Positions 17,789-25,221 of a stretch of 64,000 nt of DNA are shown piece by piece. The translations under genes and the position numbers were made by a program. The stretch lies in sequence record PQ569687.1; one strand, written 5' to 3'. Position 1 is the stretch's first letter. Every line of letters starts with the position of its first letter. This DNA is from Klebsiella phage vB_Kpn_K54_rec1. Below the pieces are notes generated by a model. The model saw nothing but the letters and a program-made list of their open reading frames with translations. It did no database searches and was not told the origin of the DNA.

Positions 17789-18616
17789 TTAGTTACCGGA
17801 CAGAGAATTTTCCAAGGCTGAAAGGCGCTTGTCAAGATCTTCCTGCACCGCAATTGTTGCTCTAAGTATCCAAAATAAGAGTTCTTCTTTTCTAAAAGCG
17901 AATTCTTCACCTGCGGGAGTATCCCCATTCGCTTCCCAGCTATCATAGCAGAAAGCTGAATACTTGGTCCAATCGAGACCGTGTTTGAGCATGACCTTAA
18001 TAGCATCCTGCACAGTAGGCCCTGAATGAAGCCTAGCAGCACCCTTTTCAGAAGAGTATTTAGACAACCATTGCCATACAGAATCTAGTTTCCCAATTTC
18101 ATAAAAAGCTTTTGCTTCTGTAGGTGTGATTTGTCGAAGATTTGTTTTCTTCTTTTTATTTGAGGTGGAGATTACACTGTTAACTGCATACACTTGACTC
18201 CAACGCAGGGATGTTGTACCGTTGGACAATACATTGTCTACCTTAGGAGAAAATGATGCTAAAGGTGTTGATATTTGAACACCATAAGTTCTTTGCACAG
18301 GGCTAAGGGCAATGGTGTCAACATGTGTTCCGATCTCATTCCCAGTAGTAGAGAAATAATATAAGTTCTGCCAACTATTAGAAAGACTATCCAAAACTTG
18401 CTGTACAGTAGCCCCCGAGTGAGTCCCTATGACGGAGGCACCTGTGATACCTGTTACTTCACTTCTTTTCAGAAGTCCTATATCGGTGATGAACTTATTA
18501 ATGGATGTCTTCTCAGTGTCAGTGGAAGATTGTATAATAATTTCATCACTGCCTGTCACAAGAGTTTTATCAGAAAGATTTTTTATCTTGATAACAGGTA
18601 GTTCTATTGTAGCCAT
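17789..18616 (-). CDS. tail fibre/adaptor protein with shared N-terminal anchor domain
   Basis: N-terminus ELPVIKIKNLSDKTL...DEIIIQSSTDTEKTSINKF is paralogous to the N-termini of the 1092-aa fibre and the 607-aa tailspike. Confidence 0.55.
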   Translation of the reverse strand: MATIELPVIKIKNLSDKTLVTGSDEIIIQSSTDTEKTSINKFITDIGLLKRSEVTGITGASVIGTHSGATVQQVLDSLSNSWQNLYYFSTTGNEIGTHVDTIALSPVQRTYGVQISTPLASFSPKVDNVLSNGTTSLRWSQVYAVNSVISTSNKKKKTNLRQITPTEAKAFYEIGKLDSVWQWLSKYSSEKGAARLHSGPTVQDAIKVMLKHGLDWTKYSAFCYDSWEANGDTPAGEEFAFRKEELLFWILRATIAVQEDLDKRLSALENSLSGN

Positions 18617-18789
18617 TTTTTACCCCCAATTAACCCATATTTAGAGACCGCAATTTTATCATCTGTCGTTAAAATCCCATCCATAAGAATTGTAGAACTA
18701 AATCGGGCCATGATTATTTTGTATATTTTATCACGCAAGACATTGATTTGCAACAATAGCAAGGGATGCAAAAAGTCAAGAGATTAAAA

Positions 18790-18815
18790 CAAAAAGGCCC
18801 GTAAGGGCCTCTTTA
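18790..18815 (-). terminator. rho-independent terminator (minus strand)
   Basis: aggccc-ttac-gggcct hairpin followed by TTTTTGTTTT on the minus strand, downstream of gene 18816..19643. Confidence 0.6.
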
Positions 18816-19643
18816 TTATGGAATTGTGGATGGGTTTGTAGGGATTGTGTCCCCAGCATATTTCCCACCGGTTCCAAAGTTAATGTTGTAAATCTGCTGC
18901 TCTGAGTTCAACAGTTCTGCATATGTCATACCAGAAGCATCGATATCAACAAAGTGCATACGATAAAGGACAAATGATTTACAAGAGTTGTTTACCAATG
19001 AACCGAAGCCAGATGCAGCACCCCATACAGGAAGGTCTTGGTAATAAACTGTAGAAGTGAAATCAGTCCCAGCTTTATCTGATTGCAGGCCCATCAGTGC
19101 GGGAGCACTCTGAACCGTATTCGGCAGACGAAAAACGATCAGTCTGTTAGATGATGGAGACGTCTGCGAAGCAATCAGCGCTTCTGTTGCGGATGTTGCA
19201 CCAGTCCCTGCTCCGGCTCTTGTCACACGATAGTGCATGAAGAGTGCAAATTTATGGTCATTTTGGTGTGTAGCAACATACTCCATGATGCCCGGAGTTT
19301 GGAATCTACCCCTGTGACCTGCGACTTGGTTCGCCTGGGAAAGAATACCATGCAACCCGCCCTTTGGCGTTCTTTCAAACTTAGCCTCAGGGGTGGCCCC
19401 TGTAAGACCAAGTGTATTTGACCAAGTGAATGCCAGATCGGCCTCAGTCTTCCCAGTCAATCTTGTTGCTTCAGAAACCGCAAGATTGGGGATTCCGGTA
19501 ACAACAGAAGTGAAATCAATATTACCAAGCTGGCTGGCATCCAGCAATGCCAGCGAACCATCGGTAAGGCCTGGGTAGGCCCTCAGCTGAGGCAGTCTAC
19601 TATCTGTAAACTGAGCGCCTTTCAGGTTATAAAGAATACCCAT
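18816..19643 (-). CDS. hypothetical virion-associated protein
   Basis: 275 aa, sits between fibre genes. Gly/Thr/Ala-rich. Confidence 0.45.
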   Translation of the reverse strand: MGILYNLKGAQFTDSRLPQLRAYPGLTDGSLALLDASQLGNIDFTSVVTGIPNLAVSEATRLTGKTEADLAFTWSNTLGLTGATPEAKFERTPKGGLHGILSQANQVAGHRGRFQTPGIMEYVATHQNDHKFALFMHYRVTRAGAGTGATSATEALIASQTSPSSNRLIVFRLPNTVQSAPALMGLQSDKAGTDFTSTVYYQDLPVWGAASGFGSLVNNSCKSFVLYRMHFVDIDASGMTYAELLNSEQQIYNINFGTGGKYAGDTIPTNPSTIP

Positions 19644-19652
19644 TTAATCCCC

Positions 19653-22931: not shown

Positions 22932-23129
22932 TTTTTGCCCTCCAAGAAGTTTATTTAGAGTAGTCAATGATGACTGTCAATAGTTGTTAAAGCTTTGCAT
23001 GGCAAAGATGGGCCATCATATCTGCTACGGCAGGTTTTTCTTCACTAATCATTGCAGGCTATAGCCGGTGTGAATCTTTGCGTATGTCATATATTACCTA
23101 TGATTATTCACTATATGACTTAATAATCA

Positions 23130-23396
23130 TTATGATAGATAAACCTGTAAGGCGCGCTCTGCTTCAGATATTATATTACTGAGATCTATGAACTCAAAAG
23201 AAAATAGCCCGTTACCTGTTTGCTCAACGCCTTGGACTGATGTTGTATAGGTTACTGTTGCGCTATTTCCGCGAATATCTGTAATACCGACAACAGTGTA
23301 GGTAACTTCAATACTTTCAATTTCAGCAGGGTAGGTTATCCCAAGCCCCGGAATCTGTTTAAACGTATTCAACTGCTGGCTTAATGTAAATGACAT
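23130..23396 (-). CDS. small hypothetical virion protein
   Basis: 88 aa, sits between two fibre/spike genes. Confidence 0.4.
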   Translation of the reverse strand: MSFTLSQQLNTFKQIPGLGITYPAEIESIEVTYTVVGITDIRGNSATVTYTTSVQGVEQTGNGLFSFEFIDLSNIISEAERALQVYLS

Positions 23397-23397
23397 A

Positions 23398-25221
23398 TTA
23401 TACCCCGTTCACTCTTGAAATTTCAGTCCACCCCTGACGAAACGCAAAGTTTGTCGCCATGAGAGTTATCATACATGCAGAAGTAACTGCTCCTCCAGGC
23501 AGGAATATATTCCCTCCGGTTACCAAGCAGTTTGCCGTATCAGGACAACGAACAACCATCTTCTTACCAGTATGACAGTAACCAAGGCTGCTAACTAAAC
23601 CGCTAGCCTGGAAAACGTACCCTTCATCGTAACCGATAGTGTCTGACCCACTAACTAATGTCCCCACACCGCCCTGAGTGTTTTGTGACCTCAGTACAAT
23701 CTTGGATTTTCTCCGTGACTCGGTAGTCATATTAGCATTAACATAAATCAAGCCTGTAACCGCCCCCTGCTGCTGTTTGACTGCAATGTCAGCCTTGACG
23801 CTCGTACCAGTGACATTAAACAGGGCAGTCTGGTTTGCTGCTGTAATAGATCCGAGCACTGTCAGGTCATCAACGGTCACTTGGCAGTCGTATAGAATAT
23901 CAATGAACCTGTTGGGGTTTGCCACCCTTGGTGCTTTGATATTAACAACCGCGTCGTTCTCGATGCTTATTGGCGCTACTCCTGTATCCCCAAGGCCGTC
24001 CACGTGCATCATATCAATATCAATGACAGCTCCTACGCACCTGGTTGCACTCGCCCACCCATCACGGTGTATTCTGAACCATTTTTTAGCGGTATATCCC
24101 GAGAGATCTGATGGACTCATATATGAGCCACCTCGGATAGAAAGATGGCGAGAATTGCTCTCTAAAAACCATTCAGTAATGTTCTCTGGGTGGCTAACGA
24201 AGATGTTGTCAAGTTTGATTGAATCAATGAGTGGCCCATTGATGGATATGACAGGATATTTAGCGCCAGAAGCAGCCCCACGGGAATTCTGCTCAAATTT
24301 AGGCATCCCAGTAAAAATGATGTTATTAGACCGCCCAGTGATAGAAATAACGCCAGTAAAGTTGTTCTCGAAATGGGGTGCAATGAAACGGATAGCGTTG
24401 CAGTTATCGTATTTCCCCCTGAAAATGATGGGGTGCGTGAAAATATCTTCCGCGTTAGATGGGTCATGAAGTTTCCCACAACTATTGATACGTAAGTTAT
24501 AAAACTGCGTATCAAACAGATCATCAGCAACGATAGCAGAGAGTGCGGCACTATATATGTGAACCGTATCAAAAACACAGTCCCAGCCAACACCACCCAA
24601 GTAAAAGACTGGGCGTAAAGTGGTGCCGGTATCACCAAGGAAAGTAAAGTTCCGCAAGTGAACTTCATGTAATGTTCTTGTTGCGTTGCTTACCCAATCC
24701 GGGCTGGAGAAATCGAAGAAATACTTATATTGCAGTTCTGGGGAATTTGCTTCTGGGTGTGGGGTGAACACGGTCTGGTACATCCCTGACCCTTCCCAGT
24801 ACACAGTACCTTTTGTGACTTTTACCGTTTGTTTTAGGTAGTATTTTTTAGCCGCAAACCTGATCCCTACGCGTGGGGCGCGAGTGGTGATTCCGCTGTT
24901 AATTGACTCCGCAAAATTTACTGCTGCTTGAAGCGCGATTGCGTCATCATAAACACCATCGCCTTTCGCGCCGAACATCTCAAGAGTGATCCAGTAGATT
25001 GCGTCTGCAACCGTACCTCCTTTCGGTAAACCCACCTTACTCGCTCCATCAGGCTGGGCCAAAGCCGCCAGCACCGACTGTTCAACGGTATCTTCAAGGT
25101 GGCTAAAAACTTGAAATAAAGTTGCCTTCTTTGTATCGTCTGGTTGATCAACTACGACCAGGTCATCTTCTGTTAGAGTGGTCGCACTTGGCAACTCTGA
25201 AATTTTAACACTCTGTAGCAT
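23398..25221 (-). CDS. tailspike protein with beta-helix (pectate-lyase-like) domain and shared N-terminal anchor
   Basis: N-terminus VKISELPSATTLTEDDLVVVDQPDDTKKATLFQV. Central repeats (NNIIFTG, NIFVSH) are typical of right-handed beta-helix depolymerases. Confidence 0.6.
   Translation of the reverse strand: MLQSVKISELPSATTLTEDDLVVVDQPDDTKKATLFQVFSHLEDTVEQSVLAALAQPDGASKVGLPKGGTVADAIYWITLEMFGAKGDGVYDDAIALQAAVNFAESINSGITTRAPRVGIRFAAKKYYLKQTVKVTKGTVYWEGSGMYQTVFTPHPEANSPELQYKYFFDFSSPDWVSNATRTLHEVHLRNFTFLGDTGTTLRPVFYLGGVGWDCVFDTVHIYSAALSAIVADDLFDTQFYNLRINSCGKLHDPSNAEDIFTHPIIFRGKYDNCNAIRFIAPHFENNFTGVISITGRSNNIIFTGMPKFEQNSRGAASGAKYPVISINGPLIDSIKLDNIFVSHPENITEWFLESNSRHLSIRGGSYMSPSDLSGYTAKKWFRIHRDGWASATRCVGAVIDIDMMHVDGLGDTGVAPISIENDAVVNIKAPRVANPNRFIDILYDCQVTVDDLTVLGSITAANQTALFNVTGTSVKADIAVKQQQGAVTGLIYVNANMTTESRRKSKIVLRSQNTQGGVGTLVSGSDTIGYDEGYVFQASGLVSSLGYCHTGKKMVVRCPDTANCLVTGGNIFLPGGAVTSACMITLMATNFAFRQGWTEISRVNGV

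Follow-up and report, generated by a model that had tools for sequence, protein, structure and literature searches.

A paralogous N-terminal module in three tail appendage proteins of the Klebsiella phage vB_Kpn_K54_rec1

The combination of conserved anchors with exchangeable receptor-binding proteins (RBPs) is already well known and is textbook knowledge for phages carrying several RBPs. The related large myovirus phi92 reportedly possesses a 'Swiss-army-knife' adsorption apparatus, as it is said to have been called by Schwarzer et al. in 2012. For Klebsiella phages, the scheme of conserved N-terminal anchors and exchangeable depolymerase domains (Latka et al. 2019) was used by Beamud et al. 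2023 (PMC9989827) and was generalized to Klebsiella phages including Mydovirus (bioRxiv 10.64898/2026.05.12.724579). Here, we analyzed a stretch of 64,000 nucleotides from Klebsiella phage vB_Kpn_K54_rec1 (PQ569687.1; hereafter called the window) harboring three genes, A, B, and C, whose products start with a related segment. The phage, its depolymerase (PMC8381472), and RBP exchange in its lineage have been published; in the laboratory, exchange of RBPs by recombination altered the host range in this same lineage (PMC12654880). The three genes and two of the modules were located as follows (ORF, open reading frame; pN/pS, ratio of nonsynonymous to synonymous polymorphism; dN/dS, the corresponding ratio of substitutions).

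17789-18616, minus strand: A, a conserved short fibre of 275 aa (ORF, Pfam PF13884, structure matches, dN/dS 0.03-0.07)
19653-22931, minus strand: B, a fibre of 1092 aa counted from ATG (ORF, Pfam, PDB/Foldseek, repeats)
22707-22931, minus strand: B-type N-terminal module, aa 1-75 (BLASTP; 80-100% identical across Mydoviruses; pN/pS 0.18)
23398-25221, minus strand: C, a tailspike of 607 aa (ORF, weak PF12708 match, gp150 match, enzymology of KpS8 gp053)
24997-25221, minus strand: C-type N-terminal module, aa 1-75, with the anchor (aa 1-45) at 25087-25221 (pN/pS 0.15)

The N-terminal module of A, B, and C

Pairwise BLASTP confirmed that the three N-termini are paralogous, as a preliminary description had proposed; the similarity was confined to the N-terminus and was not lost under alignment statistics. 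B and C share 51% identity over 65 aa (E=9e-13), A and B 38% over 69 aa (E=2e-11), and A and C 24% (E=5e-5). After correction for about 2.5e5 ORF pairs of the window, the B-C and A-B similarities stayed significant and the A-C similarity did not; A and C are linked through B. The alignment of the three modules contains 13 invariant columns. A profile built from relatives outside the window matched only A, B, and C among the 711 ORFs of the window (E 5e-29, 2e-27, and 2e-22); no fourth copy was found among these ORFs, the next best match having an E of 0.79. The shared stretch, previously put at about 50 aa, is 65-75 aa long, and the motif quoted for it fits B and C, but A is a more divergent paralogue (IKIKNLSDKT...SDEIIIQSSTDTEKTS).

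The module consists of an anchor, residues 1-45, with the pattern (I/V)KIxxLPxAxx..xDxxVVxQxDxTKKxT, and a connector, residues 50-75, with the pattern GAxxIGxxxGxTVQxxL. The connector is widespread: it sits at domain boundaries of many other tailspikes, sometimes repeated, and is found at internal positions of the solved tailspikes 9d84, 7xy1, and 8x8m and in Webervirus spikes. Some members of the anchor family carry two to three copies of the connector; in others it is absent and the anchor is directly followed by Tail_spike_N.

The distribution of the module was determined by an exhaustive HMMER search of 1.84 billion representative proteins, which was used in place of a word-indexed protein search because the latter, with the 75-aa profile, returned only nine short, uninformative fragments. 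The family comprises 91 clusters; with few exceptions, the match begins at residue 1 or close to it. Annotated phages with the anchor are exclusively rV5-like genomes of about 135-160 kb, with hosts belonging to Klebsiella, Salmonella, Cronobacter, Escherichia, Raoultella, Proteus, and Enterobacter. Furthermore, the profile search identified anchors in two phi92 proteins, the endosialidase gp143 and the small gp140. Domains located behind the module were assigned for 58 members. Tail_spike_N was present in 23 of these and Gp10_C in a single one; other domains were S74, pectate lyase, beta-helix, RCC1 repeats, alginate lyase, Collar, and SASA esterase.

Anchor types, cassettes, and their joints

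The locus was compared in the window and 12 other Mydoviruses (13 in total). Each phage contains two to five genes with the module. The modules fall into five position-specific types, A to E, each nearly invariant across the 13 phages and 25-54% identical to the other types. The A-type reads MATIELPVIKIKNLSDK..., the B-type MA(F/L)xTIKIAELPSATQVVGDDYLVVEQPDKTKKAT..., and the C-type MLQSVKISELPSADTLTEDDLIVVDQPDDTKKATLFQV...; the D-type was found in AV124 and VLCpiM5b, and the E-type in AV124 and K45PH128C2. One dock shared by all three proteins had been assumed before; the module occurs as position-specific paralogues instead, which suggests distinct attachment sites. In AV124 (13268-15257) and K45PH128C2 (13106-13867), the divergent E-type anchor belongs to an extra protein of 250 aa encoded between the sheath-initiator and baseplate spike genes; in AV124, a 411-aa ORF adjoins it. 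The feature tables of the ENA records OY979426, OY978796, and OY757067 do not match their sequences, with names such as 'ribonucleotide reductase' and 'endolysin' placed over tail-fibre genes; most coding sequences are flagged as pseudogenes, and the annotation is apparently offset from the deposited sequence.

Over residues 1-40 of C, all 13 Mydoviruses show 85-95% identity irrespective of the C-terminus; identity falls to 37-100% for residues 41-75, and no similarity was detectable for the remainder of the protein in 10 of the 13. Except for those with the same cassette, B-type proteins are alike only up to about residue 230-305. A is conserved at full length (82-100% identity), with a dN/dS of 0.03-0.07 in each of its three segments, and is under strong purifying selection. 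Thus, a conserved module with swappable domains behind it was found for B and C, where the anchor is kept and the rest replaced, but not for A, and a role of A as a swappable RBP does not apply within the genus. For aa 1-40 of the C-type, the pN/pS ratio was 0.15, and for aa 1-75 of the B-type it was 0.18, at a synonymous polymorphism (pS) of 0.23-0.31; conservation of the anchors acts at the protein level, through purifying selection. A ratio of 0.53 obtained for B aa 75-230 was discarded as unreliable because it was computed without a gapped alignment.

The upstream joints of the cassettes lie inside coding sequence: DNA homology stops at codons 38-74 of C and codons 212-241 of B. Downstream of the C cassette, the joint was located at 23033-23095 in eight of the 12 relatives and at the start codon of B in three phages. 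Downstream of the B cassette, homology resumes at 18620-18702, mostly at the ribosome-binding site and start codon of A (18620-18628); therefore, the spacer 18629-18815 is part of the variable B cassette. The density of single-nucleotide polymorphisms (SNPs) climbs gradually on both sides of each cassette edge. Dense SNP patches distinguish the window from KpS8 at 24910-25000 (18 differences in 90 nt) and 22611-22737 (19 in 127 nt), just behind the modules of C and B; outside these patches, the B and C genes of the window are nearly identical to those of KpS8. BIS47 has the KpS8 allele in C. The patches resemble short tracts of gene conversion at the boundary of the module.

These results also bear on the intergenic stretches, which had been described as AT-rich and as possible recombination joints. 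Three spacers were delimited.

18617-18815, minus strand: spacer upstream of A (GC 0.352; terminator and promoter-like site; breakpoints at 18620-18702)
22932-23129, minus strand: spacer upstream of B (GC 0.364; most relatives have the downstream joint of the C cassette here, at 23033-23095)
25222-25341, minus strand: spacer upstream of C (GC 0.30; hairpin and promoter-like site)

Intergenic stretches are AT-rich, but modestly so (GC 0.33-0.37 as compared to 0.446 for the window). As for recombination, the downstream joints of the C cassette do fall in the spacer upstream of B, but the upstream joints lie in coding sequence and the spacer upstream of A is mostly inside the variable B cassette. 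Each RBP gene has its own predicted transcription signals. For A, these are a strong intrinsic terminator (18810-18786) and a promoter-like site (18753-18725, TTGCAA-17-TAAAAT); for C, a hairpin resembling a terminator (25313-25290) and a promoter-like site of the extended -10 type (25281-25254), in each case upstream of the gene. A repeat of 49 nt with 80% identity is present at 17694-17742, upstream of the wedge gene, and at 18705-18753, upstream of A. Within it, TTGCAA-17-TAAAAT with an extended -10 precedes ATACAAAAnAATCATGGnCC; the repeat is probably a phage promoter. A related sequence, TGGTAAAATGTAC, occurs upstream of C. Additionally, the leaders of A and B have the short motif ATGGCCC in common.

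The cassette of C contains one further ORF.

23130-23396, minus strand: hyp88, an 88-aa ORF abutting C, travelling with the K23-type C cassette

C is about 98% identical to gp053 of KpS8 (DepS8), for which degradation of K23 capsule was demonstrated with the expressed protein (PMC8381472). On the basis of this published enzymology, C is a K23 capsule depolymerase. A pectate-lyase-like beta-helix had been postulated for C; residues 54-122 match the start of the crystal structure of the phi92 colanidase gp150 (E 2e-8), which together with the K23 enzymology agrees with this fold, but the match to PF12708 (pectate-lyase-like) is weak (22.2 bits, E 1.4e-4) and below the curated cut-off of 27. The product of hyp88 matches PHROG 7836, and the ORF was found only beside K23-type spikes, those of KpS8 and BIS47.

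For B, the following parts and a neighboring ORF were delimited.

22467-22709, minus strand: Tail_spike_N domain (TSP1/gp66-type) of B, aa 75-155 (PF18668, PDB sequence matches, Foldseek)
21523-21974, minus strand: three tandem repeats in the shaft of B, spaced by 171 nt (57 aa)
19656-20564, minus strand: SGNH/GDSL-fold esterase of B, aa 790-1092 (motifs, AlphaFold2 model, Foldseek)
18816-19643, minus strand: hyp275, a 275-aa ORF travelling with the window-type B cassette

B is composed of anchor, Tail_spike_N, a coiled coil, three 57-aa repeats, and an SGNH-fold esterase. Residues 97-141 match PF18668 with 43.8 bits (cut-off 25, E 2.7e-11); the Tail_spike_N domain has PDB sequence matches to 8x8m, 9occ, 5w6h, and 4oj5 and Foldseek matches to TSP1, TSP3, and TSP4 of CBA120 (E about 1e-4) and to gp63.1 of G7C. 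The repeat shaft noted earlier was recovered with its three units, and the SGNH esterase was likewise supported, by motifs and fold and without support from Pfam: the conserved blocks I, III, and V were found as GDS at 809, GQNN at 868, and DRTH at 1047, and scans of B with Pfam and NCBIfam did not detect an SGNH domain. An AlphaFold2 (AF2) model of the esterase domain, built on eight homologues, reached moderate confidence (predicted local distance difference test, pLDDT, 69.6; predicted template modelling score, pTM, 0.71). Its top Foldseek matches were acylhydrolases, TesA, GDSL lipases, and an acetyl-xylan esterase, together with designed scaffolds (E 2e-5 to 1e-3, template modelling score normalized to the target about 0.5). 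The C-terminus of B is thus a predicted SGNH-fold esterase; SGNH-containing fibres are listed for Mydovirus in a recent preprint.

The closest homologues of the esterase domain, P0093 and its relatives (65% identity over the full length), are hypothetical proteins of 315-329 aa in Klebsiella pneumoniae assemblies and presumably represent prophage-encoded stand-alone versions of it. In KB57, the B gene is split into ORFs of 332 aa and 774 aa (8933-9931 and 6654-8978) although it is about 98-99% identical to that of the window, and VLCpiM5b carries an orphan ORF of 134 aa (8266-8670) that corresponds to a B-type N-terminus only and is followed by ORFs lacking the module. Either arrangement could result from a frameshift or a sequencing error, or the fibre could genuinely consist of two pieces. 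The product of hyp275 is similar to a PHROG 'minor tail protein' family at the C-terminus of the latter; the ORF is present only with the same type of B, in KpS8, KB57, and K54lambda. Since hyp88 occurs only with K23-type spikes and hyp275 only with window-type B, each cassette carries a linked accessory gene.

The C-terminus of A, described before as a small globular domain, is a Peptidase_S74 intramolecular chaperone according to Pfam and structure matches. A is composed of an A-type module (aa 1-78), a stub of 45 aa, a triple-beta-helix end, and the chaperone (aa 152-275). It matches PF13884 with 36.9 bits (cut-off 22, E 4.5e-9), and residues 121-264 align with pb1 of T5 (4uw8, E 5e-16), with 7y5s (E 2e-17), and with the K1F endosialidase chaperone. 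A Ser/Lys dyad functions in autoproteolysis of S74 chaperones; Ser152 and Lys157 of A occupy its positions (Ser-x4-Lys) and are predicted to mediate self-cleavage. Mature A would then have about 151 residues, comprising the anchor, 45 unique residues, and the triple-beta-helix end. As only about 45 unique residues lie between anchor and chaperone, A has no recognizable receptor-binding domain.

Two chimeric proteins are related to A. NDO71, with two module genes, encodes at the position of A a protein of 642 aa consisting of B(1-305), 119 new residues, and A(58-275), the junction being exactly at the connector motif. P0020, a metagenomic relative of 669 aa, consists of A(1-85), about 390 residues that begin like a beta-helix depolymerase, and A(84-273). 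In view of these chimeras, A looks like a cassette site in its empty form, flanked by anchor and chaperone. P0006, an ORF of 57 aa on a 100.8-kb Logan contig, fuses the first 45 B-type anchor residues to the final 12 residues of A, with nothing in between; this suggests a deletion of B, the 275-aa ORF, and A, or an assembly artefact.

The origin of the locus was deduced from comparison with other phages. Positions 17000-26000 are 99.9% identical to vB_Kpn_K54_rec5 and K23PH08C2 and 99.1% to KpS8 and Seu621, all four being Mydoviruses of the subfamily Vequintavirinae. Positions 40000-64000 show 100% identity with K54lambda1.1.1 and the K54_rec series, and positions 11500-34000 contain almost no SNPs as compared to the lytic Mydovirus K23PH08C2; because of these two matches, the window is a chimera, a recombinant of the K54_rec type (PMC12654880). 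The K23PH08C2-like left tract has a length of at least 22 kb and includes all three RBP genes. The DNA acquired by K54_rec phages was ascribed to a cryptic prophage (PMC12654880); contrary to this, the sequence of the left tract points to a K23PH08C2-like lytic phage as the donor. Breakpoints between the window and K54lambda1.1.1 at 23033 and 25046 were considered as joints of the published laboratory recombination and were rejected in view of the nearly SNP-free region of 11.5-34 kb. Since the laboratory tract comprises at least 22 kb, they are older natural mosaic edges.

On the minus strand, the genes are ordered as follows: a homologue of the sheath initiator (204 aa, 25342-25956), C, the 88-aa ORF, B, the 275-aa ORF, A, a 497-aa Baseplate_J wedge protein, a 209-aa wedge protein, and a 348-aa fibre, which is a homologue of phi92 gp147. 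A tail fibre of 586 aa is encoded at 11157-12917 (minus strand). Over its residues 5-111 it shares 46% identity with the N-terminal part of the phi92 colanidase gp150, and its C-terminal end is similar to that of gp151. These similarities suggest that the virion contains a second anchor family, unrelated to the first.

Attachment of the appendages and alternative explanations

We consider it probable that A, B, and C form three trimeric appendages of the tail whose first 65-75 residues serve as paralogous virion-attachment modules, with position-specific anchors and exchangeable cassettes behind B and C. The anchors would attach the trimers to the virion, each type most likely directing its own fibre to its own site, either at the baseplate periphery or on a neighboring fibre. 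The C cassette would consist of the K23 depolymerase and the small linked ORF, and the B cassette of stalk, repeats, SGNH esterase, and the linked 275-aa ORF; A may be the 'empty' form, in which the anchor is followed almost at once by a self-cleaving chaperone, and it is conserved in this state. Host range would shift when homologous recombination between related phages replaces a cassette; replacement itself is evident from the mosaic structure. The homology arms would be provided by the conserved 5' coding segment on one side and by leader, start, and N-terminal region of the next gene on the other.

Several observations speak against this explanation. No T4 gp10-like (XD) branching domain or other recognizable dock was found by Pfam in the baseplate proteins of the window. 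The anchor has no relative among solved structures, as a PDB sequence search with the module matched the connector motif only. An AF2 monomer model of B 1-170 gave a low-confidence anchor (pLDDT 53-68), and Foldseek with this model matched only the downstream Tail_spike_N domain; hence, no fold could be assigned to the anchor. NDO71 is devoid of any A-type anchor, so the A-type 'address' is dispensable at least in this phage. The module was not used as a joint in the event that produced the laboratory recombinant, the donor tract of which measures at least 22 kb. Finally, cryo-electron microscopy of phi92 leaves fibres I and II unresolved, and the placement of gp143 at the distal tip of the L-shaped fibre is an inference (PMC13450770); if it is correct, the anchor may bind another fibre and not the baseplate.

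The last point leads to the main rival, a branched assembly, which we regard as possible, though clearly less probable than separate position-specific attachment. Only one of A, B, and C would bind the baseplate, the other anchors would dock on that protein or on each other, and the module would be a fibre-to-fibre connector, as in TSP1-4 of CBA120, gp66/gp63.1 of G7C, and the K1-5 adaptor. B indeed has a Tail_spike_N domain of the CBA120/G7C type directly behind its anchor, and the number of anchor genes varies from two to five without an obvious change in wedge genes. However, a search covering A, B, C, and 14 neighboring structural proteins did not detect a gp10-like (XD) domain in any of them, and because all three proteins carry the anchor, none is an obvious anchor-less hub. 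In phi92, gp143 was placed at the distal end of the L-shaped fibre and fibre II is attached at the base of fibre I (PMC13450770), in line with branching, but this assignment was itself inferred from low-resolution density.

It is improbable that the 5' segments are kept mainly as DNA recombination arms, or through recent gene conversion, with no specific structural role of the protein. Short N-terminal stretches of high identity have been read as recombination substrates (bioRxiv 10.64898/2026.05.12.724579), the cassette edges coincide with the conserved 5' segments, and the small mosaic SNP patches at 22611-22737 and 24910-25000 lie directly behind them. Nevertheless, synonymous changes build up in these segments while amino acids are kept, as indicated by the pN/pS and pS values given above, and the paralogues within a genome are too diverged in DNA to recombine with each other, yet the protein motif is kept; these pN/pS values and the low DNA identity between paralogues make a purely DNA-level role unlikely. 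Moreover, distant phages (phi92 and Seunavirus) have the module at the level of protein similarity only.

We give equally little credit to the module being a tag for a shared assembly factor, such as a tail-fibre assembly protein or a T4 gp63-like attachment catalyst, with no interface in the finished virion: an 'RNA ligase and tail fiber protein attachment catalyst' is annotated in related records in the region matching 40-64 kb of the window, and a low-confidence prediction of the anchor alone is expected for a segment folding only upon partner binding, but the position-specific divergence between types is unexpected if one common factor reads them all, and each RBP already has its own folding aid (S74 in A, linked small ORFs for B and C).

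Returning to position-specific attachment, we tentatively suggest, as a conjecture rather than an expectation, that the anchor might be an undescribed docking domain of rV5-like myoviruses functioning as an address code with one site per type, and that A might be an 'empty chassis' kept for a structural or triggering role. If this were true, the unresolved fibres of phi92-like baseplates could be assigned to genes, and rules for engineering phages with several RBPs would follow.

Comparison with described systems

Mydoviruses are candidates for phage therapy of Klebsiella, and their host range is limited by capsule type. For rational swapping of RBPs it is useful that the constant anchor extends to about aa 40-60 of the spike and to about aa 230-300 of the fibre, that small ORFs travel with each cassette, and that the anchors are position-specific. 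The established general picture of modular RBPs is unchanged by these results.

In agreement with the scheme for Klebsiella RBPs, the N-terminus is conserved in the genus, the receptor or enzyme part is swapped, several RBPs are present per virion, and N-terminal similarity ties a depolymerase to non-depolymerase RBPs. Unlike in that scheme, the anchor of about 45 aa forms a separate family confined to rV5-like myoviruses, with up to five position-specific paralogues per genome; it presumably differs from the T7 gp17-like and T4 gp10-like anchors of the scheme.

The related phi92 has the same gene order (sheath initiator, RBP genes, wedge, and fibre III), multiple fibres and spikes per wedge, and the anchor in gp143 and gp140. 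It differs in having only these two anchor-bearing proteins; its colanidase gp150 has another N-terminus, which it has in common with the 586-aa fibre of the window. With CBA120 (TSP1-4) and G7C (gp66/gp63.1), the locus has in common several enzymatic RBPs per virion and the Tail_spike_N domain of B; furthermore, a predicted SGNH esterase RBP lies beside a depolymerase, as is the case for G7C gp63.1. In contrast to these phages, gp10-like branching domains were not detected here by the search described above, and the anchor that precedes Tail_spike_N is without counterpart in those structures. A resembles T5 pb1 and the K1F endosialidase in its chaperone including the S152/K157 dyad, but the chaperone accounts for nearly half of A, with about 45 unique residues after the anchor. 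Beyond the published work on this phage, its depolymerase, and RBP exchange in its lineage, the comparison delimits the anchor family and its five position-specific types, interprets A as a chassis of anchor plus chaperone, and adds the link to gp143 and gp140, which provides a sequence handle for the unresolved fibre densities of the phi92 structure.

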